DNA from: an uncultured Solirubrobacterales bacterium
GTDB lineage: Bacteria > Actinomycetota > Thermoleophilia > Solirubrobacterales > Solirubrobacteraceae
DNA length: 64,000 bases
Direction of reading: 5' to 3'
Assembly (NCBI GenBank): GCA_963794715.1
Contig: CAWCEY010000009.1
Span: 94,385-158,384, forward strand
Shown here piece by piece: positions 4,709 to 23,892 of the stretch; within the stretch, counting starts at the first letter, position 1, and every line of letters starts with the position of its first letter. A program made the translations under genes and the position numbers. The notes below the pieces were generated by a model that had not been told where the DNA came from, searched no databases, and saw nothing but the letters and a program-made list of their open reading frames with translations.

Positions 4709-5025
4709 GGCGTACGCTCAGGCAATGAGACGGCGTGCGGCCCAGGCAGCCCGGGGACGAACGCTCGGCCAGCGAGCTGCCGGGCAGCTCGTGCCAACCT
4801 CTCGACCGTCCGATGAGCCGAACACAGGCCGCGCAGGTTTCTCGGCTTGGCGCACGAATAAAGAAGCGGATCGCGAGAGATAACTGTCGAATAACGATCT
4901 GCCCGCCCGGGTAGAGGAAGTTCTCGGGTAGAGCAACTTATGGGCCTCCGATGGGCTCCAACAGGGGCGCACCGCCGTGTACAGGGTGGACGAACGTGCC
5001 CGTCGAGCCACTCCGCCAGGAATAA

Positions 5026-5054
5026 TTGACAACGCAACTATTGTGCCCTATAAT
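5026..5054 (+). promoter_or_regulatory. Perfect sigma-70 consensus promoter TTGACA-N17-TATAAT
   Basis: TTGACA 5026-5031, TATAAT 5049-5054. An ACAA-N8-TTGT inverted repeat overlaps the -35 and spacer. Confidence 0.85.
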
Positions 5055-5127
5055 TCCGACTCCAGACATAGGAGTTCAGGAAGGTGGCTCGATAGGGCCG
5101 CCCCTTTCAAGCCGAAAGATCAGTCCC

Positions 5128-6123: not shown

Positions 6124-6169
6124 GCCGCGCGCAGCGGTCTGCCGACGGGCCGCGTAAGATCTGAGCCGT

Positions 6170-8291: not shown

Positions 8292-8411
8292 GGCCTCAAT
8301 CGTATGACGCAGCGCCTTTGGCCGCGCGACCCAGCTACTATACTGAGAAAATCCGTAAAACACTGACCATACGCGCACAAAACCTGGACTTCAAGTCAGA
8401 TCGACACCGCT

Positions 8412-9890
8412 ATGCCCACTTTTTCCCTCGACGCGCAGCCGGAGGTGTTCTTCAGCACCGCCGCTACCAATGACGCGGTTGCGTACGCGGTGCAGACGGG
8501 ACGTGCCCGCAAGCTCGGGCCACGCCTATACACGAAGTCGATGAGCGGGGCGCCGGAGGATGTCTGCCGTCGCAATTGGGCGGCGGTCACCGCCGGCTAC
8601 TTCCCGGGGGCCGTTCTCACCGGCCGCTCGGCGTTCGCCTTCAGGCCGGCGGACGACGGGTCGGTATTTGTGAGCTCCCGGCAGGCCCGCGACGTGCGCG
8701 TCCCCGGCTTGCGCCTGCGCTCCCAGCGCGGGCCGGGCCGCCAGGAGGGCGATATGCCGTTCATGGGCCAGAACCTGTTCATCAGCTCCCGACCGCGGGC
8801 CTTTTTGGAGAACCTCAGCCTCTCCCGCTCACGTGCTGGCGCCGTGACGCGCACGCTGAGCCGGGAGGAGCTGGAGGAGGCGCTGGAGGAGTTCGGTCGC
8901 TATGACCCGGGCAGCCTGAATCGGCTGCGCGATGAGGCTCGCGCCCTAGCGGGACCCCTCCACGCCGAGCGCCAGTTCGGGCGGCTCGATGAGCTCATTG
9001 GCGGCCTGCTGCGCACGCGCAAGGTCGAGCTCTCCAGCCGCCGCGCCCGGGCGAGCGCCCGGGGCGAGCCCTTCGACCCCGCGCGGATCGAGGCGTTCGA
9101 GCAACTCGCCAACCACCTGCTGGGGGTGGGCTTGCCCTCCGTTCCCGAAGGCGCGTCGGCCGACATGAGCGTGCTGGCGTTTTACGAGGCCTACTTCTCC
9201 AACTACATCGAGGGGACAGAGTTCACTGTCGCCGAGGCCCGCGAAATCGTCTTCGCGGGACTGCTGCCACAGCAGCGCCCGCAGGACGCGCACGACATCT
9301 TGGAGACCTACCGGCTGGTCGCCGACCGTCACCAGCGTGGGCGCGCGCCGGGCAGGGCCGACGAGCTGGTGGCTATCATCCGCGACCAGCATCGAATGAT
9401 GCTCAGGGAACGTCCGGAGATCGGGCCCGGGCGCTACAAGCAGCGCAACAACCACGTCGGCGGGCACGAGTTCGTCGATCACCGACTCCTCGACGGCACG
9501 CTCCGCGAGGCCTTTCGCTTCTACGCATCGCTACCGGCCGGGTTTGCCCGGGCGGCCTTCGCGATGTTCGTGATCGCCGAGGTGCACCCGTTCGCCGACG
9601 GCAACGGCCGCACCGCGAGGCTGCTGATGAACTCCGAGCTGACCGCCGCCGGTCAGCAGCGCATCATCGTCACCACCCACGACCGTGGCGACTATCTCGC
9701 CGCGTTGCGGGGGATCAGCAACCATATGAACATACCGGCTTACATCTCGATGCTCGCCGAGCTGCAGCGCCGTACCGCGAGCATCGACTTCTCGACCCTC
9801 CCCGCGGCCGAACGCGACCTCCTGCGGGCAGCAGCGTTCACCGACCCCGACGTCGAGGAGCTGGCCGACCGGATCGACTGGCCGCGCTGA
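8412..9890 (+). CDS. Fic family protein, long form with N-terminal extension
   Basis: Canonical HPFADGNGRTAR motif; EAYFSNYIEGTEF. Confidence 0.88.
   Translation: MPTFSLDAQPEVFFSTAATNDAVAYAVQTGRARKLGPRLYTKSMSGAPEDVCRRNWAAVTAGYFPGAVLTGRSAFAFRPADDGSVFVSSRQARDVRVPGLRLRSQRGPGRQEGDMPFMGQNLFISSRPRAFLENLSLSRSRAGAVTRTLSREELEEALEEFGRYDPGSLNRLRDEARALAGPLHAERQFGRLDELIGGLLRTRKVELSSRRARASARGEPFDPARIEAFEQLANHLLGVGLPSVPEGASADMSVLAFYEAYFSNYIEGTEFTVAEAREIVFAGLLPQQRPQDAHDILETYRLVADRHQRGRAPGRADELVAIIRDQHRMMLRERPEIGPGRYKQRNNHVGGHEFVDHRLLDGTLREAFRFYASLPAGFARAAFAMFVIAEVHPFADGNGRTARLLMNSELTAAGQQRIIVTTHDRGDYLAALRGISNHMNIPAYISMLAELQRRTASIDFSTLPAAERDLLRAAAFTDPDVEELADRIDWPR
9855..9890 (+). repeat. 36-bp repeat shared by the 3' ends of the Fic and Uma2 genes (partner 10424-10459)
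   Basis: 33/36 identical; proteins end EELADRIDWPR* and EQLAERIDLPR*. Confidence 0.85.
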
Positions 9891-9937
9891 GCTCAACCCG
9901 GATCGGGAGGCGAGAGAGCAGCGTCTATCCTTGTGCA

Positions 9938-10459
9938 ATGCCCACGCTGGTGATGGACCCTGCTCCGGCCGAGATTGTCGCGCTGATCGAGCGTCGGCGT
10001 CGCCTCGGGCTCGACCACCGCGACGAGATTTGCGAAGGTGTCTACCGGATGAATCCACCGCCCTCGCACGAGCACCAGGTCATTCTGCAACAGCTGGCCG
10101 AGCTGCTCGGGCCGCTGGCGCGAGACGCCGGCCTGGAGGCCGTCATCCAAGAGTTCGGCCTGGGCACGTCCGACGAGTACCGCGTGCCCGACGGAGGCCT
10201 GCACCGCCCCGGTGCCGGCGGCGTCTGGCACCCCACCGCGGCGCTCGTCATCGAGATCGTCTCTCCCGGCGACGAGACGTGGAAGAAGCTCCCCTTCTAC
10301 GCCGCCCACCACGTCGACGAGCTGCTGATCATCGACCCGGCCAAGCGCACTGTCGATTGGCTCGGGCTCGACGGCGGCGAGTACCGCCCGATCGAGCGCA
10401 GCGGCCTGATCGACCTCGGCTCCGAGCAGCTGGCCGAGCGGATCGACTTGCCGCGCTGA
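9938..10459 (+). CDS. Uma2 (DUF820) PD-(D/E)XK endonuclease-fold protein
   Basis: YRVPDGG, LVIEIVSPGDETWKKLPFYAA. TATCCT lies 6 nt before the ATG (leaderless). Confidence 0.88.
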   Translation: MPTLVMDPAPAEIVALIERRRRLGLDHRDEICEGVYRMNPPPSHEHQVILQQLAELLGPLARDAGLEAVIQEFGLGTSDEYRVPDGGLHRPGAGGVWHPTAALVIEIVSPGDETWKKLPFYAAHHVDELLIIDPAKRTVDWLGLDGGEYRPIERSGLIDLGSEQLAERIDLPR

Positions 10460-10493
10460 ATCGACCAGTCCGCCGGCTCGCCACGCGCAACCT

Positions 10494-10706
10494 CCCGAGG
10501 ACATCCCCGACAAAGCGGTTTCGCTGCGGCGGATCGGGCGGCTGTTCGTGCCCTACCGCGTGCGGCTCGGGTTGCTGCTGGGGCTGATCGTGTTCGGCTC
10601 GATCCTCAGGGTCGCCTCGCCCTTCCTGCTGCGCGAAGCGGTCGACAAGGGGATCGTCGGGCACGACCTGGAACTGCTGACGTGGATGGTGGCGGGGATG
10701 ATCGCG
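10494..10706 (+). pseudogene. Start-less 213-bp fragment of the ABC transporter gene (direct repeat of 22060-22272)
   Basis: 10 mismatches over 213 bp by manual alignment; homology ends abruptly at 10706. Confidence 0.93.
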
Positions 10707-10738
10707 TTGACGCATGCGATTGGTAGCGTGCTCGACAT

Positions 10739-11392
10739 ATGAGTGGTTTCGAAGGTTTTCGCGATTCGCCGCAGGCACCGTTCTACCGAGCGGGCGCCCG
10801 CTCGCCCGATGACACCTGGAACGATGCCTCCAGGCGACTGGAGAAGACGATCGAATCCGCCACCGCGGCGGCCGGGCATCGGCCGATCGAGATGACCGTC
10901 GAGCGCGTGTGCGGCTGGCACCGGGGAATCTTCCTGAGCACATTCCCGCGCGAGGCCGGATACATCCGCTCCGACCATGAGCCCGCCGAATTCGCGATTC
11001 CGATCGACATCGACGGCGAGACCGTCACGACACCGATGCACGGCACGCTCCCACACAGCGAGATCCTCACGCGCCTGCGTGGCGCCTGCGAGACGTACAA
11101 CGCCAAGCAGGCCACGCTTCAGCGCCGGACGGGAGCGCTCACCGCCGTCGAGGGCGCCACACCCCCGGCGGAGCTGTACGCCGCGATCCTCGAGATCCAC
11201 CCCTTCATCGACGGCAACCTGCGCGCGGCCTACGTCGCGCTGCAGGTCGGGCTCGCTTCGCTGGGCCTGCCAACGGTCCGCTTCGGGCACGCAATCGACC
11301 GCCACGACGAGTGCCTGGGCTGGGCGATGCGGGGCGATGCCGAGCGCACGATCGCACCGCTGGCCGAGCTGATCGTGGAGCTGGCGCAATGA
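10739..11392 (+). CDS. Fic/Doc family protein with variant motif
   Basis: HPFIDGNLRAA (canonical HPFxDGNGRxxR). Confidence 0.75.
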   Translation: MSGFEGFRDSPQAPFYRAGARSPDDTWNDASRRLEKTIESATAAAGHRPIEMTVERVCGWHRGIFLSTFPREAGYIRSDHEPAEFAIPIDIDGETVTTPMHGTLPHSEILTRLRGACETYNAKQATLQRRTGALTAVEGATPPAELYAAILEIHPFIDGNLRAAYVALQVGLASLGLPTVRFGHAIDRHDECLGWAMRGDAERTIAPLAELIVELAQ

Positions 11393-11432
11393 CCACGCAA
11401 CGACGGGTCCATCACGCGCTATCCTCAAGGAC

Positions 11433-11636
11433 ATGACGAGGATCCGATACCGAGACCTGGATCTACCCCCCGGGCTCTGCATTGCTGACGGCAACGGCGT
11501 CAGACCGTGGGACGAGAACTCCGCCAAAGAGCTCGCCCTCGACGCCATGATCCTCTCCCAAGGCGCCGAGCGCGGCCAGGCAATGCTCGACGCCCTAGAG
11601 CAGACCGAGCACTCACCGGCCGTCTCCAGCCGCTGA
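11433..11636 (+). CDS. Small hypothetical protein downstream of Fic (possible partner)
   Basis: 67-aa ORF with AAGGA just upstream; no recognised family. Confidence 0.45.
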   Translation: MTRIRYRDLDLPPGLCIADGNGVRPWDENSAKELALDAMILSQGAERGQAMLDALEQTEHSPAVSSR

Positions 11637-11698
11637 ACATTGCAACGACCTCCCCGGGCGGGGATTGGAGTCGCGGCGCGGGCGTTAGAATCCTGTCT

Positions 11699-11908
11699 AT
11701 GACAGCTAAAGATCTGCTGCTGGAGCAGGCACCAAGTTGGAGTGATGCGCAGGCCACCGCGGCCCTGCGCGTGGTGGCGGCCCAAACCGCACTGGCGGCA
11801 TACCTCACCGACGAGGCGAACGGCTCGACTGAGGAGCTGGATGCGCGCGAGGACTGCTGGGCAGAGGCGAGTGCCCGCGAGGCGATCCTCGCGTCCGTCG
11901 ACTGCTGA
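11699..11908 (+). CDS. Small acidic helical protein, antitoxin-like
   Basis: TAGAAT-N7-ATG leaderless start; MTAKDLLLEQAPSWSDAQATAALRVV; acidic C-terminus. Confidence 0.55.
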   Translation: MTAKDLLLEQAPSWSDAQATAALRVVAAQTALAAYLTDEANGSTEELDAREDCWAEASAREAILASVDC

Positions 11909-11981
11909 ACCACCACGGCGCCCGCGGCAATCCGCCGTGGTACGCGGGTGCGGTATTTGTTCGGCTGGCTAAGATCTGGGC

Positions 11982-12191
11982 ATGGCATTGGCCCTGAAAC
12001 GAATCCACACCGACTTCTCCGGCTACGAAGGCCAGTGGGTCGCGATCGACATGCGTACGGGCAAGATCGTGATTGCCGACAAGGACCCGCATGTGGTCCT
12101 GCGCAAGGCCAAGGGCCGCAACCACGTAGTCGTGCATGGCCGCGTCCCGTACGCGGATGAGCCGCTCCGCGACCACTTCGGCTTTGCCTGA
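11982..12191 (+). CDS. DUF5678-like small protein
   Basis: YEGQWVAID...IVIADKD pattern; TAAGAT-N6-ATG leaderless start; overlaps the next gene. Confidence 0.65.
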   Translation: MALALKRIHTDFSGYEGQWVAIDMRTGKIVIADKDPHVVLRKAKGRNHVVVHGRVPYADEPLRDHFGFA

Positions 12192-12579
12192 GACACCCCC
12201 GCTGCCCTGGCTGTACGCGTACCAGGAGGACGCCCATTCGACCCGGCTCAGCCAGCCGATCCTGCGGCCGTTCGTGCTGGTCTCGCTCGTGCACGGCAGC
12301 CAGAGCACCTCGCTGCTGCAAGGCCTGGTCGACACCGGCGCCGACGCGATCCTCGCGAGCGACCTGCTCACCGTCGAGCTCGAGATCGACCTCGACGACA
12401 ACGAGGGCGAAGCCACCCACGCGGTCGGTGGCAAGGTGCTTGAGACCCGCTACAAGACGCTCGATCTGCGTCTGTATCCCAGCGACGGCGCCGAGGACTC
12501 CTCCGTCAGCTCTTCTTGCCCCCTTTGGTCTTGTGCTTGGTGCTCTTCGCGTGCACGGCCTTCTTCGCGCAGCCGGTGA
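12184..12579 (+). pseudogene. Retropepsin-like (clan AA) aspartic protease, probably 3'-truncated near 12500
   Basis: RP.V.V...GLVDTGAD motif; TTG start overlaps the DUF5678 stop; the last ~25 codons are antisense of the next gene. Confidence 0.65.
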
Positions 12580-15442
12580 CCGTGACCGGCGTGATCTGGT
12601 GGATTTCGGCGCCGTTCTGGGCGACGAATTCAGTCGGCATCTGCAGTGTCGCCGGCTTGGTCTGTTTGGCCTTGCGGGTGATCGTCTTCGTTTGGCCGTG
12701 GATCTTGACCGTGACCTTCTTCTTGACCGTGACGGTCTTTGTGGTCGCGCAGAGGTTCCCGAGCGCGGTGAGTGCGCTGTAGGGGCCCTCTGGGAGCGTC
12801 AGTTCGAAGCTCGTGACGGGCTGGTCGGGGACGGTCTTGAACGTGCTTGACGTGACGCCGGCTTTGCTGATGAACGTGGTGCCGACCAGGTCGATCGTGA
12901 ACCCGTAGCCCTGCAGCACGACGATGAGACTTGGCCACCCTTCGCCGCCGTGGGAGACGAAATACGCGGGGCCTTCCAGCGGGACCGGGAGGATCGGAGT
13001 GATCGCCCTGGCGTGCCCGATGATCGACGCCGGCGGGCACCCCGCGGGGTTGGCTTCAAACTGTGCGGCGGTGCACGCTTTCTGCAGCGTCGGCAGACGG
13101 GAGGGCAACTGCTCGGGGAGTTCGACTTTGACGCGGCTGATGTTGGCCTGGGTGCCGAGCGCGCCGGGAACCGTGAGCTTCGCGGTCAGGCTCGCGCCGT
13201 CCGCGCGGCTGGTCTTCGCAGAGGTGGAGACGGAGAACGAGGGCTTGAACGCGAGGCTTGAGCAGTCCGCGGCCTCAAACGGCGTGTTCACACTCACCGG
13301 GACCTGGTCTGAGGGGTCGGCAAAGTTCGCGCCGGCGCCGTCGATCGTGTTCGTGATCTGTAGGGGGCTGCAGTTGGTGGGGTTGATGATGAACTTACTG
13401 CGGTCCATGTACACCCGGATGTCGCGGACGTGTACGACGATGCCTTTGATGATGTGGGGGATTGGGTCTGAGCCGTTGGCTGAGACTTCGACCTGTGCGG
13501 TCGAAGGGTTGATGTCGAGCGCGAAGCGGATCACGACAGTCCCCAAATCGAATGGGCCCACCTTGGCCGAAGTGATCGAGACGATCGATAGCGGCGCGCC
13601 ATGATATGGGCCCGCCAGATAGATCTTGCCGGGTGTTTGCGCGAGTACGGTGCCGACGCCCGCTTCGACGATTGTGTGCCCGATTTCGCTTGAGGCGGGG
13701 CAGGAAGGGTTTGCTTCCTCTTGTGCGCCGGTCATGTTCTTTGACGCTTCGATCGCGGCTTCGGGGCAGAACGGGATCCCTGTGAGGTTGCCGGTCAGTC
13801 CCGGTGGCAGCGTGGTCGAGAACCTGGTGAGCTCTTGTTCGCCGTCTTCGCGGATGATCCGCAGGTAGAACGGGCTGTAGGTGCCGCCGGCGTTGTTCTG
13901 GGTGCCGGAGATTACCTGGGGATGGAATGGTGGCACGCCACCGGAGGGGCAGGGGCCTTCGCGGACGCCCTGGGTGATCTGGAACGGCTGGCTCAAGGAA
14001 AAGCTCGGTTCTGCGGGTGCTGACCACGGCGTCAGCTGCGCCTGGGTGCTGTATGACCCGCACGCTGGTGGGCTCACCAGCGGCGCGGTCGCGCCAGGAC
14101 GGAACTTCAGCGTGAACTTGCTGAACGGCTGCTGGGGATTATCATCAAACGTCGTCACCAGCTGCCCCGTCACCGGGTTCGGCTCGATCTTGCCCGCGAC
14201 CTTCACCACGATCCCACGCGCGGGATCCTTCGCCACGACATACAGCGCGAGCAGCGACCCACCCGGGTGCTGCGGATCGCCGAACGCGGGAACATTGTCA
14301 TACGGTGTGGCGATGTAGATCGCGCCCGGGATCTTTTCCGCGAGCACCGGTGTTTCGATTTCGATCGAGCCGATCTTCGATTCAGGCGGACAACCAACCC
14401 CCGGCAAGGATTCCGCCGTCTCGGCTTCATACTCGCCCCGGGTGCACGCCCCAAGCCCCGCCGCCAGCGACGGGTTGGCCGTCACCCCTTCCGGAAGCGT
14501 CACCACCGCATCCTTCAGATTCGACGCGGACCTCGCCGTCGGATCTTCCCACGTCTGCGGGTTCACCACCGAGAAATCCAAGCCAGTGGGCGATTCCGCA
14601 GCGACCGTCGAGGGCGTCACCTCGATCGAGGGATGAAACGGCAAGCGTTCGCATTCGACCATCGGAGCGATCTGCGTGGTTTCTTCGAGCACTTCTTCAG
14701 GATCCTGCCAATCATTGCTCTTGAATGTCGCGGTGAACGGTTCCGAAGAGCAGCTCGTCGGGTTGGCGAGATACGGACGAGGACTGACGTCCGCCGACAG
14801 CCCACCACCGTGGCACACACCGTTCGTGCATTCCTGGCCACGCTGTTCGTCATGAGCCGGGTCAGCCGGAACCCCCCACACCGTGACAGACACTTCGGAA
14901 AGTTCGGTCAAACCCTGAAGATCTTCGCTGGTGATCGTCAGCCCCAGATCGCTAGGACGCACCTTGACCACCAAATTCTGAGTGATAATGCCACCAAGAT
15001 TGAACGCGAACATCGCCGCGATACCAGGATCGATGACTTCCATGTTATACAAAGGAAGAGTGACCAGCTCCGCGGTGGGACGATCGGGAGCACCCGAGAT
15101 CGCGAAGCTGATCGTCCCCACCTGAGAATCCGGCGAGCACTGCGGATGTTTGCTGTTGAGGAGCTCCGAAGCCGTGCAGGTCGCAACAGCGGTGTTGTTG
15201 CCGACGAAACCGGCGGGCAGTTCGACCGAGGTGGTCCTCGCGTTGCCCTGCGTCTGACCCGCGCCGTTATGAACGAATTTGAAAGCGGTCGTGAGATCCT
15301 CATGAACACCGGCCTGCTGAGTAGACGGAGTGACATGAAACGAGCCGGGCTGGATCGCAAACGCGCCGGCACCCGCCGGCAACACACCCCCCGCAAGAAC
15401 GCATACGGCAACGACCAGCCTCAAACGAGCAGCAGCGCTCAT
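12506..15442 (-). CDS. Large secreted protein (978 aa) with four ~230-aa Cys-containing repeats and a Lys-rich tail
   Basis: Signal peptide (RLRLVVAVCVLAGGVLPAGAGA); LP.G...C...CP..S.IG occurs four times; C-terminus KKAVHAKSTKHKTKGGKKS. Confidence 0.88.
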   Translation of the reverse strand: MSAAARLRLVVAVCVLAGGVLPAGAGAFAIQPGSFHVTPSTQQAGVHEDLTTAFKFVHNGAGQTQGNARTTSVELPAGFVGNNTAVATCTASELLNSKHPQCSPDSQVGTISFAISGAPDRPTAELVTLPLYNMEVIDPGIAAMFAFNLGGIITQNLVVKVRPSDLGLTITSEDLQGLTELSEVSVTVWGVPADPAHDEQRGQECTNGVCHGGGLSADVSPRPYLANPTSCSSEPFTATFKSNDWQDPEEVLEETTQIAPMVECERLPFHPSIEVTPSTVAAESPTGLDFSVVNPQTWEDPTARSASNLKDAVVTLPEGVTANPSLAAGLGACTRGEYEAETAESLPGVGCPPESKIGSIEIETPVLAEKIPGAIYIATPYDNVPAFGDPQHPGGSLLALYVVAKDPARGIVVKVAGKIEPNPVTGQLVTTFDDNPQQPFSKFTLKFRPGATAPLVSPPACGSYSTQAQLTPWSAPAEPSFSLSQPFQITQGVREGPCPSGGVPPFHPQVISGTQNNAGGTYSPFYLRIIREDGEQELTRFSTTLPPGLTGNLTGIPFCPEAAIEASKNMTGAQEEANPSCPASSEIGHTIVEAGVGTVLAQTPGKIYLAGPYHGAPLSIVSITSAKVGPFDLGTVVIRFALDINPSTAQVEVSANGSDPIPHIIKGIVVHVRDIRVYMDRSKFIINPTNCSPLQITNTIDGAGANFADPSDQVPVSVNTPFEAADCSSLAFKPSFSVSTSAKTSRADGASLTAKLTVPGALGTQANISRVKVELPEQLPSRLPTLQKACTAAQFEANPAGCPPASIIGHARAITPILPVPLEGPAYFVSHGGEGWPSLIVVLQGYGFTIDLVGTTFISKAGVTSSTFKTVPDQPVTSFELTLPEGPYSALTALGNLCATTKTVTVKKKVTVKIHGQTKTITRKAKQTKPATLQMPTEFVAQNGAEIHQITPVTVTGCAKKAVHAKSTKHKTKGGKKS

Positions 15443-18400
15443 CGCTTCACCCTCCCGTTCTTGCCGGCCTTCCCGGCTTTTTTCTTGGGTCTCGTCCTAT
15501 GCTTGCGCTTCTTGGTTTTCTTCGTGGTGGCATGCTTCGGTTTCCCGCCTTTCACCGCCGGTTTGCCGGACGGCACCGGCGTCACGTTCCCCGACCCGGC
15601 GAACGTCGAGCTCGACGGCGTCGCGTCGACCGGAGCGCTCGGCGGCGTTGAGCACGCATCCGCTTCGCATTCCACCGTCGAGGCCGCCGGCGGCGCGAAA
15701 CCACCATCGATCCGCACATCATAAAGATCCCCAGCGGTGTCCTGATCGGCCGGAGCCAGCTGCGAGTGAGTGGCTATCAGAACGTCCCGGCCCGAGGGAT
15801 CCGTACCGAGCAACACATTACGGAACCCATCAATCCCGTTCGTCAACAGAGCGACACAACCCGCGACCCGAGAACAACCATCGACACCATTCGCACGCCA
15901 CTCATACACATCCCAACTATGGCTGGGCGGTACAAACGTTTCTGGTTCTTCACCATCGATATCCTGGGGAACGAGCTCAGAGACCGACCTGAAGAACGCG
16001 AAGCGACCGTCGTCGGACCCCCACGTAGGACGCGGCGTAGCACCATTTATATACTTTTCTTTGCCCGCGCCGAGCTGCCCATAAGGCGCAAACTCGCCCC
16101 CTCCGGCCGGATGGAAGGCAGTGCACGCGATGCAGGTCGCAGTACCCGAATCGCGGTCATAGCGATACGGCCCCGCACCCGGCGCACCGAAGAAGCCCTG
16201 CTGAAAATAGAAGAAGCGGCCGTCCGCGGTGACGAAGAAGTGCGCGGACGCCTGGCCTTCTTCGCGGTCCTGGAAGATGAACTGGAGCTTTTCGCTGGCT
16301 ACGTCGAAAACGTACCAATTTTGGATCCCCTTGTTGTAACTGGTGATATCAGGGGTCGGCGGCGCTTCGGGCGTGAGTTGACGGGGCGAACTAAAATAGA
16401 CAGTGCTGGCGTCATTGGAGACCGTCGCGGCGATTCTTTCACCTGCCCTCTGCCCAAGGATCGCCTTGCTGCCGTCGAGCACGAGCGGCTTGAGTGTCCG
16501 AGTTTTGGTGTCGTAGCTGAACGTGATCTGTTCGCCGTCGTGGCCGAGCAAGAGCATCGCGCCGTTGGGGCTCGCGGCGTCGAAGGTATATTCGCCGATG
16601 TCAACGGTTTCAGACCCGTTCACCCGCATGTACAGGTGGCTGTGATATACGGCCGGGTCATAGCGGAGCCCACCCGCTGGACACGGGCCGTCAGGGATCG
16701 CTTCGAAGAAGATCTTGGAGCCGTCTTCGGAGATCGCGTGGGCAGCGAAGACGTCCACGTAACCTTCGAAGTTTTCGCTGCCGAGGGGAACCCTGGCGCC
16801 GCAGACGCCGATCGTGTGGCCCTGCGAATCGACGTTCACCTGCGCCAGGCCGGCCCGGGCGGTGTATTCATACAGGTCGGGAAGGCCCGCGGCGGTCGTG
16901 CTCTGAGGCAGTCCGGGCAACGCGTGGTCACGGGTCATCACCACAAGCTTGCTGAGCGTCGGCGTGGCAGCCGCCCACATATCCTTGCCTTCACCATTTT
17001 CGAGCAACTGATTGAAAGGTGTCGAAGCGACAGGCGTGTAAGGGCCACCGTCGGGACCAAGCAGCAGATCCTGGTCAGCTGAATGACTCTGATAAGTCGG
17101 TTCGGAATAGCGAGCGAGGGCGACCTGCGAAAGATCCGCGCTGAAGATTTCCGGCAGATACGTGTCCTCCCCAGAGCCAGGCGGCGTGAGCGAGGTCATC
17201 CGCCAGCCGGCAGTGGGATCGCGGTCAAAGACATAATCGGACACGAACGGGTTGGGATCCGAGCCGTACTTCGCGAGCGTCCGCAGCAAGACGTGTTCGC
17301 CGCCTTCGCCGAGACGCGCCAGCGAGGAGGCCGAGCCGTAGTTGAAATTGTCCTGCGCGCCGTTCTTACTCGCCGGCGTGATCAACTCATAGGCACGACA
17401 GTCCGGCAGGCGAGCCGCGAGCCCGGAACGGAAACTTTCGTTCGGACAGGACACCGACGGCTGCGCAGGCGCGGGAACAGGGACAGTGAACGTCTGTTCA
17501 GCACCAGCGATAACCCCCGCTTCGCTATGCGCAAGCAGACGATAATGATAAGTGACGCCAGACTGCAATCCAGGCAGCGTGACACCCACGATCTGCGACT
17601 GGTAGAGCAGGAGATTGGCCTTACCTTCCTGTGAGCGTTCTTCAGTGCGGTGAGCCCCGACGCCAAGGTCAACGTCGGGGCTCGTCTCAGGGTTGGCAAA
17701 ACCTTCCGCTTCGAAGTGTTGCTGAGTGACGTACTCGACGTGATAGTGAGCGTCAGTCGTCACGCTGCGAGGATCGACCGAGCCGAGGACGCGGAACGAT
17801 TCGCCGTCGAGGACCCGGGTGGCAAACGTGACCGCGGCGGGCGGACCTGCGGTTTCGAAGCCGATCGGCGAGGTGGTCTGGGAGCCAGCCGCGTTTTCGG
17901 CAAAGAGGCGCACATAGTAGATGGTGGCCGGGTTCAGGCCGGTGAGGTCGGTGGAGAAGCTGTGAGGCTCCTGGTCGGCTTCGCCGGCGGGGATGGTTCC
18001 TTCAACGCCCGGGGTCCACGGACCGGTTTCCGAGCTGGCCGTTTCAAAGCGCCAATGCGTTTCGGAGCTGTCGGGGATGACGGTGCCTGGGACGTGGGCG
18101 GCGGTAGCGGAGACGTTGTCGGGCAAGCCGACGTTCGGGCGCGGCTGGGCCGGTGAGGTGGCGAATGTGGCCGTCTCAGTCGCGGAGCCTAGGGAGTTGG
18201 AGGCGAACGCGCGAACGTAGTAGACGGTCTGGGGGGTGAGGCCGGTGAGGTGCGCGACCTTCGTCGGAGCAAAATCTTCAGCGACGCTGACGCTGCCTTC
18301 GGTGCCCGCGACCGGGATGTAAAAACCATTTTCTTCGGTCGAGTAAGCAAGGTGATATTCAGTCGGGATGCCATCCGTGTCCAGTTCGGCGAAGACACTG

Positions 18401-19029
18401 GCCGCAGTAGGGGTAGGCAACGAAGCAGAACACATATGGGGTGTAGTGTTTTCGAAGGACTGTGGCACCCTTTCGATTCCCTCGCCGCTGCCACATTTAG
18501 CAACAAGAAATTCGGGAGCAGCGGGCGCCTTCGTGGTGAATTCGGCCTGGTTCGGTGGCGCTTCGCCGAAAGAGTTCTTCGCGGTGACGCGGACAGTGTA
18601 GGTGGTGCTGGGATGAAGCCGCTTGATCGATTGGCCGCCGACAGTTTCAAACGAGCACTGTTCGGTGCAGGTGAGACTTGTGAACAGCTGCCAGGCGGCG
18701 GGGTTGGAAGGTTCGGTGGTGTATTCGAGGCGTGCTTCGGTCGTTGCGCCTTCGGCCGAAATGATCTGATCGACTTCGGCGCGAGTGGAGTATACGTGTT
18801 CGATTTCGAGCGTAGCGAGGCGAGGGGGGCCGGCGGCAACTGCGGGCGCCGTGGCGACGGCGAGGAAGAGGAGGAGAACAGCAGGGAGAACGGCCATGAC
18901 CGCCGACCGGCGAAGGGCAGGAGCGGATGAGGGCGCGCCACTGCCCCGGGCCAAGCGCAAGACACCGAGACGAGAAACGACACCCCTCGTGGCGTCAGGC
19001 GTCTTTTGGGATCGCTCCAGATAAGTCAC
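15439..19029 (-). CDS. Large secreted protein: about four FN3-like repeats, a beta-propeller-like region and a Lys-rich tail
   Basis: GTG 19029 follows GAGAAAGG; LTGL.P.T.YYVR repeats; ISEDGSKIFF and SDDGRFAFF blades; ATGA overlap with the downstream gene. Confidence 0.85.
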   Translation of the reverse strand: MTYLERSQKTPDATRGVVSRLGVLRLARGSGAPSSAPALRRSAVMAVLPAVLLLFLAVATAPAVAAGPPRLATLEIEHVYSTRAEVDQIISAEGATTEARLEYTTEPSNPAAWQLFTSLTCTEQCSFETVGGQSIKRLHPSTTYTVRVTAKNSFGEAPPNQAEFTTKAPAAPEFLVAKCGSGEGIERVPQSFENTTPHMCSASLPTPTAASVFAELDTDGIPTEYHLAYSTEENGFYIPVAGTEGSVSVAEDFAPTKVAHLTGLTPQTVYYVRAFASNSLGSATETATFATSPAQPRPNVGLPDNVSATAAHVPGTVIPDSSETHWRFETASSETGPWTPGVEGTIPAGEADQEPHSFSTDLTGLNPATIYYVRLFAENAAGSQTTSPIGFETAGPPAAVTFATRVLDGESFRVLGSVDPRSVTTDAHYHVEYVTQQHFEAEGFANPETSPDVDLGVGAHRTEERSQEGKANLLLYQSQIVGVTLPGLQSGVTYHYRLLAHSEAGVIAGAEQTFTVPVPAPAQPSVSCPNESFRSGLAARLPDCRAYELITPASKNGAQDNFNYGSASSLARLGEGGEHVLLRTLAKYGSDPNPFVSDYVFDRDPTAGWRMTSLTPPGSGEDTYLPEIFSADLSQVALARYSEPTYQSHSADQDLLLGPDGGPYTPVASTPFNQLLENGEGKDMWAAATPTLSKLVVMTRDHALPGLPQSTTAAGLPDLYEYTARAGLAQVNVDSQGHTIGVCGARVPLGSENFEGYVDVFAAHAISEDGSKIFFEAIPDGPCPAGGLRYDPAVYHSHLYMRVNGSETVDIGEYTFDAASPNGAMLLLGHDGEQITFSYDTKTRTLKPLVLDGSKAILGQRAGERIAATVSNDASTVYFSSPRQLTPEAPPTPDITSYNKGIQNWYVFDVASEKLQFIFQDREEGQASAHFFVTADGRFFYFQQGFFGAPGAGPYRYDRDSGTATCIACTAFHPAGGGEFAPYGQLGAGKEKYINGATPRPTWGSDDGRFAFFRSVSELVPQDIDGEEPETFVPPSHSWDVYEWRANGVDGCSRVAGCVALLTNGIDGFRNVLLGTDPSGRDVLIATHSQLAPADQDTAGDLYDVRIDGGFAPPAASTVECEADACSTPPSAPVDATPSSSTFAGSGNVTPVPSGKPAVKGGKPKHATTKKTKKRKHRTRPKKKAGKAGKNGRVKR

Positions 19030-19170
19030 GGGCGTACCTTTCTCGTTGGTGTGGCGCATGTGGTCTAGTCCGGTGAATGAGATGTGTTGGCGATATGCAG
19101 AGATGGGCCACCGAGGCCTCCCCGTGGCCGACTGGCGACCGCGGGGAGACACCCAGCTTGGCAAGCGCCG

Positions 19171-20022
19171 CTAGGGAGCGGTCACCGCCCACGAACCGGA
19201 GAAGCCGGCACCATATCCCGGTTCTGGTTCTTCCGGAGCGACAAAGATCATGTGAGCGCCACTGGTAGGGGTGGTGGTCGCCTCGGGCTTTTCATCTTGG
19301 AATTCGAAGAATTCCATATTTCCGTTTGCCGCGGTTTCAGCGTACACACAGAGGTTGCCTTCGACGGCAGACGGCACCGCCGCGGATCCCGGACATTCGG
19401 CGGGCGCCGTGTGACCTTCCACTTCAGCAGCGGTGACAAAATGAGCCTTCCCCTTGGCGAGCGGCGCCGCCAGGGGTATCGCGTAGGAGAGCGGTTCGAC
19501 GTAGAGACCCGCGGTATGGACGCTGAAGCCCCAGGTGCCGGTCTCGGTCTTGCCTTCGGGGAGCGTTTCCGTGAAGCCGGTCTGGCCGTTTTCGCCGTTG
19601 CACGCATACGTCGTCCCGCTCGCGGAGACGAACTTCGAGCCGCCGGCTTTGCAGTTGACGCCCGCGGGCTCTTTGCTACTGGTGACGCTCACCCCAGCGG
19701 CGCCGTCTTGACCGTTGGTCCCATTGGTGGCGTCTTTGCCCGCCGCGCCTGCTGGTCCTGCCGGCCCGGCGGGGCCGGCAGCTCCGGTAGCGCCCTGGGG
19801 GCCGGCGGGGCCGCGAGGGCCGGCCTTCGTTTTGGGCTTGGCCTTGCTCTTGGCGATAGTCGCAACCGGGGCTCCGCGCCTGACGGAAGCAGTCGTCTTC
19901 GAGCCGGTACCGCCGCCCCTGCCACCGCTCGCGGCGAACGCGCCACCGGTGATCGCGAAGACCAGCGCCACAAAGGCCAGGATCGTCGCGGGGGTAATGT
20001 GCCTACGTAGTGTCTGGAACAT
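19171..20022 (-). CDS. Secreted collagen-like (Gly-X-Y) protein
   Basis: AGGAGG RBS; signal peptide; GPRGPAGPQGATGAAGPAGPAGPAGAAGKD run; Cys-containing C-terminal domain. Confidence 0.88.
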   Translation of the reverse strand: MFQTLRRHITPATILAFVALVFAITGGAFAASGGRGGGTGSKTTASVRRGAPVATIAKSKAKPKTKAGPRGPAGPQGATGAAGPAGPAGPAGAAGKDATNGTNGQDGAAGVSVTSSKEPAGVNCKAGGSKFVSASGTTYACNGENGQTGFTETLPEGKTETGTWGFSVHTAGLYVEPLSYAIPLAAPLAKGKAHFVTAAEVEGHTAPAECPGSAAVPSAVEGNLCVYAETAANGNMEFFEFQDEKPEATTTPTSGAHMIFVAPEEPEPGYGAGFSGSWAVTAP

Positions 20023-20132
20023 CGTTCATCTCCTCCTAAGGAGTACGGAGGGAACAGACGACGCCCCTCGGTTGTTGTTGTGCTGCGCGCCCGAGGGGCG
20101 CGGGAAGATTGGAGTAGTGCAACCAAGCGGTG

Positions 20133-21221
20133 TCACGCTGCCTCGCCCTCGTCGCGGGTGAGGACGCTGAGGCGCCGCGCGACCTGGCCGCCCAATGGTG
20201 TGAGCCGCCACGCGTTCGGCTCGCCGGAGAGACGACCCCCGCCCGTATTCACCGTGAGACCCAGACCCTCCAAGCGCCGCAAAAGCTTTGAGATCTGCCC
20301 CGGGTCGATGATCCCCGCACGCTCCGCGACCGCCCGGTTGCTGGCACCCGAGAGCTCGCCGACGCACCCGAGCACCCGCGCGGTGCGATAGGTGAGACGC
20401 ATATTCACCTCATCCAGCGGATCGCGCTCCTCACCCACGGAGGACCGCTCGCCCTCCGGCGCCGGAGCCGGCACGGGGGCAGGACGCCGTTGTTCGCGAC
20501 GAGCGGCCCTTGGCCCGAGGTACTGCAGCGCGATCATCCCCATCAGCTCGTCCAAGAGGTCGGTCAACGGCCTGCTGTCGCCGCTGCGCAACCGCGCGTA
20601 GATGACGCCGAGCGCGCCGCCCACGAGACCTTCCGCAGTCACCAACGTGCACTCCGCCCCACGCGGCCCCTCCCCGCGGCCCTCATCCAGGACCGCCGCC
20701 AGCCACGCGAGGACCTGCTCACGACGTTCCAAAGTCTGCGGCCCACCGTGCAACGCATGCACAACCCAGATCCGCGCCAGCAACGGCTCGCGCTCCAGAA
20801 ACGACAGGATCACCCACAGCCCGCCGCGGACCCGCTCACGCCACTCCAGGCCCTCAAGACCCGCCGCGGCGAGATCCCGCTCGACGCGCTCCACGACCGC
20901 GTCGATCAACGCGACCAGGCACGTTTCGCGGTTCTCGAACAACTCGTAGAAGGTCCGCCGCGAGACCTTCGCCCGTGCGGCGATCCGCGTCACCGTGCTC
21001 TGCTCAAAACCAAACTCGTCGATCGTCGCCGCGACCGCGACCAACAAACGCGAATGCTGAATCTCCTCAACCTGCACCCGCGGCGCACCCCGCAAGGAAA
21101 CCCGCTGCTCACGCCGCCGCGCCAAACGCCCCTCCACCGGCAAAGCGCGCTTAGCCACACGCGGCCGCACCGCCGTCGCCCGACCACTGCTGGCCGATCT
21201 CCGATCGGTCGACGCGGCCAT
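20133..21221 (-). CDS. TetR/AcrR-type regulator with an extra C-terminal winged-helix domain
   Basis: N-terminal TVTRIAARAKVSRRTFYELF; C-terminal SNRAVAERAGIIDPGQISKLLRRLEGLGL. Confidence 0.82.
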   Translation of the reverse strand: MAASTDRRSASSGRATAVRPRVAKRALPVEGRLARRREQRVSLRGAPRVQVEEIQHSRLLVAVAATIDEFGFEQSTVTRIAARAKVSRRTFYELFENRETCLVALIDAVVERVERDLAAAGLEGLEWRERVRGGLWVILSFLEREPLLARIWVVHALHGGPQTLERREQVLAWLAAVLDEGRGEGPRGAECTLVTAEGLVGGALGVIYARLRSGDSRPLTDLLDELMGMIALQYLGPRAARREQRRPAPVPAPAPEGERSSVGEERDPLDEVNMRLTYRTARVLGCVGELSGASNRAVAERAGIIDPGQISKLLRRLEGLGLTVNTGGGRLSGEPNAWRLTPLGGQVARRLSVLTRDEGEAA

Positions 21222-21418
21222 CAGCAGCCACCCCCCACGAGCGCCCGTGAACCAGTGACCCCAGTGGCCCAGTTCAGAGGCGCCGAGAACCTACCCCCCG
21301 CGGGGACGAAGCAAAGACGGCGCGAATGCCCCAGCCCTTCCCTTCCCCCCTCCGGGGGGTTCCGGGCGGCCCGCGAAAGCGGGACGCAGGGGGGCTCCGA
21401 GGCTAGACCGCTAGCCGA

Positions 21419-21441
21419 AGAGAGAGAGAGAGAGAGAGAGA
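21419..21441. repeat. (AG)11 dinucleotide microsatellite
   Basis: Read directly from the sequence. Confidence 0.97.
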
Positions 21442-21683
21442 TGCGACAGCGCCAAGCTGGCGCATCTAGCATCAGCCCTACGGGCCGACGCGCACATCCC
21501 CATCACGAATCTCCCTCTAGAAACCACGCTCAAACAACTCCCTCATCGATCCGATCCAGTCCCTCTCCCACACCTACAAGACCCTGCTAGCGCCTGAAGT
21601 CAACCACAAGGCGGTATGACCCCAACCAGACCCTATGTACACCGGCCGCCCCCACAACGGTGGGACGACCAGCCATGCGGCAC

Positions 21684-21712
21684 ACCGTAGCCGAGCTACG
21701 TATAAATGTCAA
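21684..21712 (-). promoter_or_regulatory. Putative sigma-70 promoter TTGACA-N17-TACGGT facing the TetR-like gene
   Basis: Reverse complement of TGTCAA 21707-21712 and ACCGTA 21684-21689; 17-bp spacer. Confidence 0.65.
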
Positions 21713-21987
21713 GCCCTACCCGCCCGGCGGAGGCTTTAGGGGTCCACGACAAAGTATCTGACGGTCCGGTGCGGCCGCTTCGCGGCGGTCTGCGCCACCC
21801 GCGATGCTCGCCGTGCCACCAGCACGGCTGCGCTCGCGTGCGTCGCATCCCATCCCCGAATCGACCACCCCGATCCCGCCATCTACTTTGTCGCGAACCC
21901 TTAGAGCCGGAGCCCCCTCCCAATCTTCCCTGTCCGGTGGCTGGATACAGTCATCTGGATGAACGTGCGGCGATTTGAGACGGTGCG

Positions 21988-23892
21988 ATGAGCAGCTTCC
22001 ACGGCGAGGGCCGCGGTGGACAGGGGGGCGGCCCGCCGCGTGCGCCCAAAGCGCTCCGCCCCGAGGACATCCCCGACAAACCGGTTTCCCTGCGGCGGAT
22101 CGGGCGGCTGTTCGTGCCCTATCGCGTGCGGCTGGGGCTGCTGCTGGGGCTGATCGTGTTCGGCTCGATCCTCAGCGTCGCCTCGCCGTTCCTGCTGCGC
22201 GAAGCGGTCGACAAGGGGATCGTCGGGCACGACCTGGAACTGCTCACGTGGCTGGTGGCGGGCATGATCGCGCTGGCGATCATCAACGGCGTGATCGGCG
22301 TGGCGCAGACGTGGATCTCCAACCAGGTCGGCCAGCGCGTGATGCACGACCTGCGCGCCGCCGTGTACGCGCACCTGCAGCGGATGTCGCTGGCGTTCTT
22401 CACGCGCACCCGCTCGGGCGAGGTGCAGGCGCGGATCGCCTACGACATCGGGGGCATCGACGACGTCGTCACGAGCACCGCGACCTCCACCGTCTCCACG
22501 ATCGCCACCGTCACCGCGACGATCGTCGCGATGTTCGCGCTGAGTTGGCAGCTGACCCTGTTCTCGCTGATCCTGCTGCCGTTCTTCGTGTGGCTGACGC
22601 GCCGCGTGGGCAACGAGCGCCGGCGCATCCAGTCGGTGCGCCAGGGCCGGCTCGCCGACATGTCCACGCTGGTCGAGGAGTCGCTGTCGGTGTCGGGCAT
22701 CCTGCTCGGCAAAACGATGGGCCGCTCCGGCGAGCTGGTCGAGCGCTTCTCCTCGGAGTCCTCCGAGCTCGCCGACCTGGAGGTGCGCGCGCGGATGGCG
22801 GGCCGCTGGCGGATGGCCTCGGTGCAGATGAGCTTCGCGATCATGCCCGCCGCCGTGTACTGGTTTTCCGGCTACACCTCCGTGCACGGTCACGCTGTGA
22901 TCTCGATCGGGACCGTGGTCGCCTTCACCACGCTGCAGACCCGCCTGCTGTTCCCGATGCAGCAGCTGCTGTCGGTGGGCCTAGAAGTGCAGACCTCGCT
23001 GGCGCTGTTCGGGCGGATCTTCGAGTACCTCGACCTGCCGATCGACATCGTCGAACGCCCCGGCGCCCGGCCGCTCGGCGCGGGCGCGGCGAGCCGCGAT
23101 GGCGCGGTGGGCCGGGAGAACGGAACGGGCCCCCGCGATGGCGTCGCCTGCGAGGTGCGCCTGGAGGACGTGTGGTTTCGCTACCGACCCGACGGCCCGT
23201 GGACGCTGCGGGAGATCGCCGCCGAGATCCCCGCGGGGACGCGCACCGCGCTGGTGGGCGAGACTGGCTCGGGCAAGACCACGCTCGCCTACCTCGTCGC
23301 GCGTCTGTACGAGCCCGAGCGCGGGCGCATCACGATCGACGGCACCGACATCCGCGACGTGACGCTCGCCTCGCTCGCCGCCACCGTGGGGCTGGTCTCG
23401 CAGGAGACCTATCTGTTCCACTCCTCGATCGGCGAGAACCTCCGCTTCGCCTGTCCGGAGGCAAGCGACGAGCAGATCGAAGACGCCGCGCGCGCCGCGC
23501 AGATCCACGAGCTGATCGTCTCGCTGCCCGACGGCTACGACACCCCCGTGGGCGAGCGCGGCTACCGCTTCAGCGGCGGGGAGAAGCAGCGCATCGCGAT
23601 CGCGCGCACGATTCTGCGCAACCCGCCGGTGCTGATCCTCGACGAGGCCACCTCCGCCCTGGACACCGAGACCGAGCGCGCGGTGCAGCTCGCGCTCGAC
23701 GAGCTCTCCCGCGGGCGCACCACAATCGCGATCGCCCACCGCCTCTCCACCGTGCGCGACGCCGACCAGATCCTCGTGCTCGACGCGGGGCGCATAGTGG
23801 AGCGCGGCACGCACGATGAGCTGCAGGAGCTGGGGGGACGCTACGCGGCGCTGACGGGGCGGGCGGAGACGGACTCCGCCGCGCTGGCGTGA
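21988..23892 (+). CDS. ABC exporter, fused permease/ATPase
   Basis: TM domain; Walker [10 protein letters not shown]; FSGGEKQR; [10 protein letters not shown]. Confidence 0.95.

Follow-up and report, generated by a model that had tools for sequence, protein, structure and literature searches.

A lineage-restricted, often tandem multi-copy operon family of Solirubrobacterales with a structured leader RNA and predicted surface proteins

Do four co-oriented genes encoding a regulator with two helix-turn-helix (HTH) domains and three secreted-looking proteins form a dedicated unit and, if so, where does that unit begin and what might it do? The question is raised by a 64,000-nucleotide stretch of DNA from an uncultured Solirubrobacterales bacterium (assembly GCA_963794715.1, contig CAWCEY010000009.1, positions 94,385 to 158,384), hereafter the window, in which an earlier reading of the bare sequence (the original prediction) had proposed a surface-assembly system at 12506-21221. 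We report that 12506-21712 on the minus strand is one copy of a conserved, lineage-restricted, often tandem multi-copy operon family, and that the unit reaches upstream to 21712, taking in a promoter and a leader. That we are dealing with a conserved operon family carrying a cis-acting leader is, in our judgement, very probable. A literature search for this operon and leader system found no earlier account. The genes are as follows.

12506-15442, minus strand: g1, open reading frame (ORF) of 978 amino acids (aa)
15439-19059, minus strand: g2, likelier extent from ATG 19059; the longest ORF extends to TTG 19164
19171-20022, minus strand: g3, ORF of 283 aa
20133-21221, minus strand: g4, ORF of 362 aa, start codon uncertain

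All four ORFs of the original prediction were found where it had placed them, co-oriented on the minus strand in the 5' to 3' order g4-g3-g2-g1. The translational-coupling overlap it had noted is likewise present, as an ATGA at 15439-15442 in which the g2 stop overlaps the g1 start, with GGGAGGG 7 nt upstream; AGGAGG stands upstream of the g3 ATG. The start of g2 is probably ATG 19059 instead of TTG 19164, because homologues align only from about residue 27-40. The proposed extent was right for the four genes and too short at its 5' limit, which lies at 21712: the promoter, the leader RNA and the (CU)11 tract had been overlooked. They fall in a 767-bp non-coding stretch between g4 and an ABC transporter gene, and this stretch contains the most conserved sequence of the unit. 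No second copy of the cassette was found within the window.

Recurrence of the gene set was followed in a species-representative scan (one genome per species), which covers close relatives only: it yielded 127 relatives, of which the best 80 were taken and 74 loci kept, every one (74/74) from a metagenome-assembled genome (MAG) labelled Solirubrobacterales or Solirubrobacteraceae. Annotation with profiles built from the window proteins gave 76 related loci in about 41 Solirubrobacterales MAGs. In 72 of the 76 cases g2 directly precedes g1, with the exact 4-nt overlap in 32; the order g4-g3-g2-g1 was counted 35 times and g4-g2-g1 13 times, g3 in the latter being perhaps too divergent to detect. 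The families thus co-occur elsewhere, and the idea of a dedicated unit is sustained both by a gene order that recurs in dozens of genomes and by fusions in which an NHL propeller and fibronectin type III (FN3) domains stand ahead of a g1-like module in single proteins. Recurrent extra genes adjoining the cassettes, for secretion, sortase or glycosylation, were sought in these loci and none was found. A loose recurrent ABC-type cluster beside the cassettes was considered and set aside, its near-identical members being a syntenic neighbour in three close relatives.

Copy number is often high, with ten or more divergent cassettes to a genome. Two or more g1 genes lie within 10 kb in 19 of the 76 loci, at least 11 g1 copies are present in MAG MFD04434.bin.2.128, and locus L001 carries three cassettes in tandem; expansion of the family is by tandem paralogy. 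In L001, on a 4.29-Mb Solirubrobacterales contig, the g2 of the middle tandem cassette (4734-9998) is split by an insertion sequence (IS; DDE_3 transposase, 6455-7522). The genomic context varies among loci, and one cassette in L002 (2009-3301) has DprA and SSB genes beside it and, immediately downstream, an IS (rve). The indexed relatives of g1 number more than 2067; the best 120 share 63-78% identity, several of them on one contig, and those that are named are all 'hypothetical', with organism labels that are only Solirubrobacteraceae MAGs. An exhaustive profile-free search with g1 gave 6882 clusters at 50% identity with E<=1e-3, and 2598 at E<=1e-30. The g1 module also builds very long surface proteins, since giants with 8-16 g1-like stretches are among its relatives (P0243, 7161 aa; P0265, 6729; P0250, 4362; P0241, 3420). 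A cluster-mate of P0243 is annotated as an 'Actinobacteria bacterium' MAG.

Upstream of g4 the unit continues with the following features.

21684-21712, minus strand: sigma-70-type promoter, with TTGACA at 21712-21707, a 17-nt spacer and TACGGT at 21689-21684
21686-21700: perfect 15-bp palindrome CGTAGCTCGGCTACG, read from the sequence, overlapping the spacer and the -10 box
21418-21677, minus strand: structured leader RNA, conserved core 21418-21638, from profile, alignment and covariation
21569-21561, minus strand: GA box 1, in the leader
21544-21538, minus strand: GA box 2, in the leader
21518-21510, minus strand: GA box 3, Shine-Dalgarno-like, in the leader
after GA box 3, minus strand: a pair of hairpins in the leader, the second at 21468-21439
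21420-21441, minus strand: the (CU)11 tract, (TC)11 in DNA, 22 nt
21411-21506, minus strand: candidate upstream ORF of 31 codons, VMGMCASARRADARCASLALSHLSLSLSLFG and a stop, starting after GA box 3

In an alignment of 69 distinct copies, TTGACA is more than 90% conserved and a TAnnnT box follows 17-18 nt downstream; transcription would be expected to start near 21677. The leader is about 235 nt long and runs from 5' hairpins through three purine (GA) boxes and two hairpins to the terminal (CU)11. Its nhmmer profile gave 71 matches in 1.65 Mb, and all 70 of those in the loci are on the cassette strand. A cassette gene lies directly downstream in 69 of the 70 (g4 in 60, g2 in 6, g1 in 2 and g3 in 1), and because any of the four genes may come next, the leader marks the 5' end of the operon whichever gene is first. 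An exact-pattern scan of JGI metagenomes added at least 121 leader matches on at least 120 soil contigs; among the matches listed, g4, g2 or g3 is directly downstream in 89 of the 92 that have at least 900 nt downstream. Altogether at least about 190 leader copies were found, almost always directly upstream of a cassette. Rfam 15 returned no match at E<=1 for either strand of window positions 11000-23000.

Several lines of evidence indicate that this element is structured as RNA. The hairpin before the tract (AGAUGCG.CAGC...GCUG.CGCAUCU) has compensatory variants in a MAFFT alignment that was not structure-fitted: GCGGCAG/CUGCCGC, GCGUCAG/CUGACGC, GCAUCAG/CUGAUGC and GCCUCGG/CGAGGC. On the raw 480-column MAFFT alignment RNAalifold gave a nearly empty consensus, so the consensus structure was derived by RNAalifold on the gap-trimmed alignment and then scored on the full one. 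Its 63 pairs are 89.8% paired, against 50-65% when the partners are slid by 1-3 columns, and its covariation score of 0.184 compares with 0.074-0.092 in the slid controls and was reached by none of 500 shuffles; 23 pairs have changed on both sides. About 40 nt downstream of the tract stands a GC-rich hairpin (helix 11), all five pairs of which covary. In position, strand and compensatory pairs, the leader has the properties of a cis-regulatory structured leader RNA, and it probably represents a new regulatory RNA class.

The leader also seems to be transcribed. Its words occur in at least 18 soil or rhizosphere metatranscriptome runs, where leader conservation makes it detectable, and a 238-nt metatranscriptome contig covers 21416-21640, ending at the tract end; these observations are evidence of transcription, the contigs being strandless and carry-over of DNA possible. 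The window's own cassette was seen in only three DNA runs (one with 80% of its words) and in no RNA run.

The tract itself is remarkably uniform in orientation and length. It lies on the gene strand in 69 of 69 copies, the background density of microsatellites being 0.13 per kb and consisting almost wholly of (CG)n. In the genome loci most copies upstream of g4 have exactly 22 nt, and among the 121 metagenome matches listed the tract measures 22 nt in 88 and 24 nt in 21, with a range of 16-32 nt in steps of 2. The GA boxes, GGGAGAGGG, GAGGGAG and AGAGGGAGA, together make up about 24 nt, which offers a reason for the fixed 22-nt tract. Within each box the A residues stand at positions of a single parity, so that it can pair with the CU repeat (G-C, A-U, G-U). 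For boxes 1 and 2, pairing with the tract is seen in 92-96% of cells, and box 3 pairs locally with a conserved GGUUUCU (helix 7), including pairs changed on both sides.

Four points count against this picture of the leader. The structure came from the same alignment on which it was tested; the z-score for folding of the single sequence is weak (-1.64); the tract side is invariant, so that the GA:CU helices rest on one-sided changes; and a U-run terminator follows the tract in a subfamily only and is absent in the window.

The tract may also be read as codons. The candidate upstream ORF, the translation of which is predicted only, starts 4-8 nt past GA box 3 at an in-frame GTG or ATG, for which the window has the series GTG ATG GGG ATG. 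It crosses the two hairpins and then the tract, and in the window it ends 2 codons beyond. Of 69 copies, 67 have such an in-frame start codon and an ORF of about 30-39 codons. The tract encodes (Leu-Ser)n in every frame, and no synonymous Leu or Ser codon was ever seen in the repeat; the repeat is invariant at the nucleotide level, and therefore what is selected is the RNA or the identity of the codons rather than the peptide.

Multi-copy families of surface genes are where contingency switches are classically met, and here slippage by one repeat unit (2 nt) would make the upstream ORF alternate between a short form and a long form directed towards g4, and so toggle cassettes and vary expression across the array. 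Tract length does change in 2-nt steps only, all the variation being between copies (contigs), and beyond the tract two of the three frames close within 45 nt while one stays open: with a 22-nt tract the stop comes at most 45 nt past the tract in 74 of 81 copies, and with a 24-nt tract it comes later (median 83 nt, with 4 of 16 copies exceeding 150 nt). The window's +2 frame is open as far as a TGA that overlaps the g4 ATG (TGATG, 21221-21225). Yet 22 nt is the modal length in some 73-85% of the approximately 190 copies, which suggests that a fixed length is selected, for example to match the roughly 24 nt of GA boxes, and by our estimate a long open frame is expected by chance about one time in four in DNA of 70% GC. 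We therefore consider such a switch unlikely.

Control at the promoter would fall to g4. The description of g4 as a dual-HTH regulator is correct, because TetR_N (PF00440) matches residues 61-105 (E 3.3e-8; 33.6 bits, cut-off 24) and MarR_2, with other winged-helix families, matches the C-termini of seven out of seven g4 homologues. The second HTH is at residues 276-322, and the C-terminal domain has the motif MRLTYRTARVL...SNR...GQISKLL.RLE.LGL...NAW.LT. TetR proteins of the PDB align over residues 53-216 (3f1b) and, for another, 52-232. The protein is thus laid out as a TetR-type HTH and ligand-binding domain (residues ~53-232), a Pro/Ala-rich linker and a MarR-like winged helix (~270-350), and beyond its TetR part, in a family whose members have about 200 aa, it carries some 130 residues more, the winged helix included; an architecture with two DNA-binding domains is atypical. 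Beside a cassette in loci L072 (9290-16388) and L074 (19730-22609) stand four to five TetR-like paralogues in tandem, distant relatives of g4 (24-31% identity).

The palindrome CGTAGCTCGGCTACG is consistent with a candidate operator for g4. Sequence classes of the promoter spacer correlate better with g4 identity (rho 0.28) than with g1 identity (rho 0.08), and in pairs of copies with spacers at least 80% identical the mean g4 identity is 84%, within a range among cassettes of 55-86%. Against a functional reading of this association, mere physical linkage of spacer and g4 would explain it as well.

How these cassettes diverge bears on whether they travel. The leader, g4 and g1 are conserved and g2 and g3 are highly divergent: identity to paralogues is 62-74% for g1 and 59-70% for g4, and 31-42% for g2 and 33-34% for g3, with a range of 33-47% for g3 in a second comparison. 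Three loci (L004, L037 and L064) are orthologous to that of the window and share its ABC-transporter neighbour, divergently transcribed and 92-94% identical as protein. Between these loci and the window the flanks are 84-93% identical as DNA and the promoter-leader-g4 block 79-82%, while the DNA of g3-g2-g1 is largely unalignable; as proteins, g4 retains 82-86% identity, g1 41-68% and g2 24-38%. Since flanks and g4 are kept while most of g3-g2-g1 no longer aligns, one fixed site in the chromosome has seen its structural genes exchanged. Over all cassettes, g4 and g1 identities are almost uncorrelated (rho 0.15), which indicates recombination between the regulatory and structural halves. Such replacement between conserved flanks and g4 argues for diversifying selection on proteins likely to be surface-exposed, rather than for an island moving as a unit. 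The suggestion of the original prediction that the island may move as a unit was therefore not upheld: the flanks and the promoter-leader-g4 block are fixed, g3-g2-g1 are replaced, and searches of IMG/VR contigs, 50,697 phage records and 72,556 plasmids turned up no relative of g1.

It was right, on the other hand, about base composition. GC is 0.61-0.65 over 12-20 kb against 0.68-0.74 in the flanks, and GC at third codon positions is 0.71-0.78 in g1-g3 against 0.85-0.95 in neighbouring genes. Low GC as a mark of recent transfer was rejected, since the cassette lies below the rest of its locus in 91% of loci (median difference 4.3 points) and the trait is thus common to the gene family. An origin from phage or another mobile element, with the cassette spreading horizontally as an island in the manner of a receptor-binding set of tail-fibre or tailocin type, might have been suspected from this low GC, from the IS, toxin-antitoxin, Fic and Uma2 genes near some copies, and from matches of the collagen-like and FN3 segments to tail-fibre families of PHROGs. 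Those matches are confined to generic GXY and FN3 segments, however, and no integrase, capsid, tail or replication genes occur in or beside the unit; all three structural proteins have secretion signals as read from the sequence. Together with the family-wide low GC and the absence of g1 relatives from viral and plasmid collections, this leaves such an origin extremely improbable.

The upstream block sits at the border between the conserved and the replaced parts of the locus, so it may be asked whether it acts as DNA, either as an array of g4 operators or as a recombination hotspot for cassette exchange, with (TC)11 forming a triplex. Homopurine-homopyrimidine mirror repeats can form H-DNA, and the near-independence of g4 and g1 identities implies recombination between them. 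Compensatory changes that include G-U pairs and keep the hairpins are meaningful only for RNA, however; every one of 70 copies has the same orientation relative to the genes, and the element lies downstream of a canonical promoter and is present in metatranscriptome assemblies. We regard a role at the DNA level as very unlikely, and continue to read the block as a leader RNA.

Some features of the surroundings are of interest in their own right. About 4.2 kb of accessory genes (8412-12579) lie downstream of g1 and are missing from the orthologous loci L004 and L037:

8412-9890: Fic gene
9938-10459: Uma2 endonuclease gene
10739-11392: second Fic gene
11433-11636, 11701-11908 and 11982-12191, plus strand: three small ORFs
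12136-12579, strand opposite to g1: retropepsin-like ORF with the motif LVDTGAD, overlapping the 3' end of g1 by 74 nt

Two directly repeated copies of a 219-bp sequence, 94.5% identical to each other, lie on either side of the cassette and about 1.8 kb of accessory genes. The copy at 22060-22278 is the 5' part of the ABC transporter gene, while that at 10494-10712 is an orphan fragment separating Uma2 from Fic; the pair looks like the scar of a former rearrangement or insertion. Farther away, 25745-27205 encodes a secreted-looking protein with PPC and Big_3_5 domains, and the sharpest GC dip of the window (0.586 against about 0.70) is at 46001-47000, between the called genes 45618-46280 and 47223-49601.

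What would these cassettes place at the cell surface? Sec signal peptides had been predicted on three proteins, and the N-termini of g1, g2 and g3 do resemble signal peptides, a judgement made by eye. As had been noted, these proteins carry no recognisable LPXTG-type signal; an LPXTG motif or a C-terminal hydrophobic anchor or transmembrane segment was sought in all of them and none was found. Pfam and NCBIfam gave no SLH, CWB2 or other S-layer module in g1, g2 or g3; NCBIfam gave no match to g1 and only generic sub-threshold matches to the other three proteins of the cassette, PADLOC defence models matched none of the cassette proteins, and PHROGs returned generic collagen and FN3 tail-fibre matches only. 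In keeping with the original prediction, which knew of no characterised system of this composition, no known pilus, S-layer, sortase-substrate, phage or defence family was matched. In place of a sorting signal there is a polybasic C-terminal tail (Lys plus Arg at a median of 44% of the last 25 residues, against 7% overall), kept in 92% of g1 homologues and 94% of g2 homologues.

The smallest of the three, g3, consists of a signal-peptide-like or anchor-like N-terminus (ILAFVALVFAITGGAFA), a Lys-rich stretch, GXY triplets and a C-terminal domain of about 170 aa with 4 Cys. Its description as collagen-like is confirmed by a match to Collagen (PF01391; E 4e-7, 30.2 bits, cut-off 27.2); the window protein has 10+4 triplets at residues 68-112, and all 50 detected homologues have 7-24 consecutive triplets. 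The best match among PDB sequences is BclA (1wck), which is weak (E 0.0017), and NCBIfam scores fall far under their cut-offs (SclB 23 bits against 325, Lcl 16 against 500).

The second protein, g2, has an RR-containing n-region and hydrophobic core, four FN3-type regions, a C-terminal propeller part of about 600 aa and the tail, its last 60 residues or so being disordered and very basic. Searched by sequence against PDB chains, the C-terminus gave noise only. Its AlphaFold2 (AF2) model, built from a 54-sequence alignment, is a beta-propeller (pLDDT 79.9, pTM 0.81), and Foldseek matched it to tricorn, prolyl-oligopeptidase and TolB propellers (E 1e-11 to 1e-8, probability 1.00), in agreement with the proposed FN3 and beta-propeller protein. 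The closest relatives of this part in the database are only 42% identical, and PF07676 or PF01436 is recognised in some homologues. In g2 neither a peptidase nor an alpha/beta-hydrolase domain was found, nor were there Tol-Pal genes at the loci, the context being the four FN3 regions and g1.

The remaining partner, g1, comprises a signal peptide, four beta-sandwich repeat modules of about 235 aa, a VTGC motif and the polybasic tail. The repeats were missed by self-BLAST and came to light through the Cys motif and the AF2 model: C-x(10-21)-C-[PS]-x(2-3)-S-x-[IV]-G marks them at residues 89, 333, 559 and 790, each module has 4 conserved Cys, and in 60 homologues the 16 Cys are invariant or nearly so. 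The model is all-beta and confident (pLDDT 90.4, pTM 0.80), and the proposed disulfide-rich protein of four repeats is thus recovered. No Pfam, NCBIfam or PDB-sequence match was obtained, the search of PDB chains giving noise. Foldseek returned integrin alpha legs, AgI/II C123, SafDAA, SdrD, Als3 and alpha2-macroglobulin MG domains, all generic beta-sandwich arrays, and from BFVD viral structures generic immunoglobulin-like arrays only. Closer kinship is disfavoured by TM-scores of at most 0.17, so that what is shared is a generic beta-sandwich array only. The flank kept in L004 and L037 encodes a DsbD-type transmembrane thiol-disulfide protein (6910-7686), which could be relevant to the disulfides of g1. 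Taken as models, the folds of the cassette proteins lend support to a likeness with extracellular adhesin and stalk proteins.

Comparison with known systems helps to place the cassette. Like BclA, Scl and Lcl, g3 combines a secretion or anchor signal with a short GXY stalk and a C-terminal globular domain, and BclA is its best PDB match. It differs from them in lacking the LPXTG of Scl and a known exosporium-targeting context, in a stalk of only 10-24 triplets with an NCBIfam score of 23 against 325 bits, and in its place in a fixed operon with two large partners and a regulator. A string of beta-sandwiches is what the g1 model has in common with AgI/II C123, SdrD, Als3 and integrin alpha legs, and relatives show propeller and leg in one chain. 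Differences are the lack of sequence similarity, TM-scores not exceeding 0.17, the lack of a sortase signal, the disulfides of the 16 Cys, and a module of about 235 aa for which neither Pfam nor NCBIfam has a model, although its clusters number at least 6882. From sortase-dependent pili and LPXTG adhesins g1 and g2 are set apart by having the basic tail only, with neither LPXTG nor a hydrophobic C-terminal segment. The domains are thus of known kinds, arranged by the logic of variable surface-protein operons, but the cassette proteins fail the defining tests of the adhesin and collagen families that they resemble.

The Bacteroides capsular polysaccharide loci (UpxY/UpxZ) and the sap loci of Campylobacter fetus are multi-locus variable surface systems with locus-specific 5' regulators. 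The present family resembles them in its many paralogous surface loci, its conserved 5' region and leader, a regulator as first gene and a divergent exposed part. Here, however, the products are proteins and not polysaccharides, the regulator is a TetR-MarR fusion and not NusG-like, and an invertible promoter or recombinase was not seen at these loci. Leader-mediated control is known from the leader-peptide attenuators of trp, leu and his and from the Rho-dependent riboswitch leaders of mgtA and corA. The long structured 5' leader, the short (Leu-Ser)n ORF, the YC-rich tract and the downstream hairpin of helix 11 recall these systems, whereas the leader has no Rfam family, has a U-run terminator only in a subfamily, and contains a nucleotide-invariant repeat that pairs with upstream GA boxes; the genes regulated are those of surface proteins and not of amino-acid or ion metabolism.

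How might the parts work together? We propose that g1, g2 and g3 would be exported through their signal peptides, oxidised to form disulfides and held on the Gram-positive envelope. A covalent link by LPXTG and sortase is unlikely; attachment would be non-covalent, through the polybasic tails of g1 and g2 and the N-terminal anchor and Lys-rich segment of g3, which could bind anionic wall polymers. The three proteins would jointly form a stalked, wall-associated surface structure with g1 as its conserved scaffold. Ligand contact and rapid evolution would fall to two exposed parts, the propeller that g2 carries on FN3 spacers and the g3 head, borne by a short triple helix of collagen type. The architecture would be one of trimeric stalk, propeller adhesin and coat, with the putative function of a surface coat or adhesin. 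The many cassettes may then be a repertoire of alternative surface specificities, shaped by phages, predators or the recognition of neighbours. A point against this scheme is that the tail as wall anchor is conjecture: it could instead bind extracellular DNA or polysaccharide, or be a processing signal.

Regulation would have two checkpoints. In the first, g4 would repress or tune its own promoter through the spacer palindrome. In the second, the tract would be either locked in a long helix with GA boxes 1 and 2 or set free by a ribosome that reads the upstream ORF through it, two states that would exclude each other, and the outcome would decide whether transcription or translation proceeds into g4-g1. 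Primary Rho sites bind YC dinucleotides, and the freed YC-rich tract could load Rho or alter the fate or folding of the downstream hairpin. To the model as a whole, surface structure and regulation together, we assign a probability of about 0.5. A bolder version holds that an abundant group of soil Actinomycetota possesses a protein surface-variation system of at least 10 alternative coat or adhesin cassettes per genome, each gated by a new class of cis-RNA in which three GA boxes clamp (CU)11 and the (Leu-Ser)n ORF reads it, so that ribosome progress, Rho loading or slippage selects the cassette; this we offer as a decidedly tentative extension.

A different use of the same proteins would be the capture of substrates, by a logic like that of polysaccharide utilisation loci, with one binding module (propeller or collagen head) per polymer or particle, each induced by a small molecule through the TetR ligand domain of its own g4. 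In its favour, a TetR-type sensor complete with ligand-binding domain belongs to every cassette, peptides or glycans are frequent ligands of TolB/PD40 and NHL propellers, and divergent copies are numerous in a genome. Yet the conserved unit contains no hydrolase, transporter or other enzyme, g4 is among its most conserved parts, so that little diversification of the sensor is visible, and allele replacement at orthologous loci fits antagonistic selection better than metabolic specialisation. We judge this explanation improbable, and prefer a variable surface structure under the control of g4 and the leader.

Solirubrobacterales are among the commonest soil Actinomycetota, and the literature searched yielded little on their cell surface. 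The operon family described here occupies about 100 kb of some genomes, and its core protein family, g1, comprises at least 6882 clusters that have no Pfam or NCBIfam entry. In its allele replacement at fixed loci the family bears the population-genetic signature of molecules exposed to phages, predators or neighbours. The leader is a candidate for a new regulatory RNA class, in which an invariant 22-nt CU repeat would pair with GA boxes while lying inside a short ORF. If our reading is true, the family would provide an entry to the surface biology and gene control of a largely uncultured lineage, and a new example of regulation that combines repeats, upstream ORFs and RNA structure.

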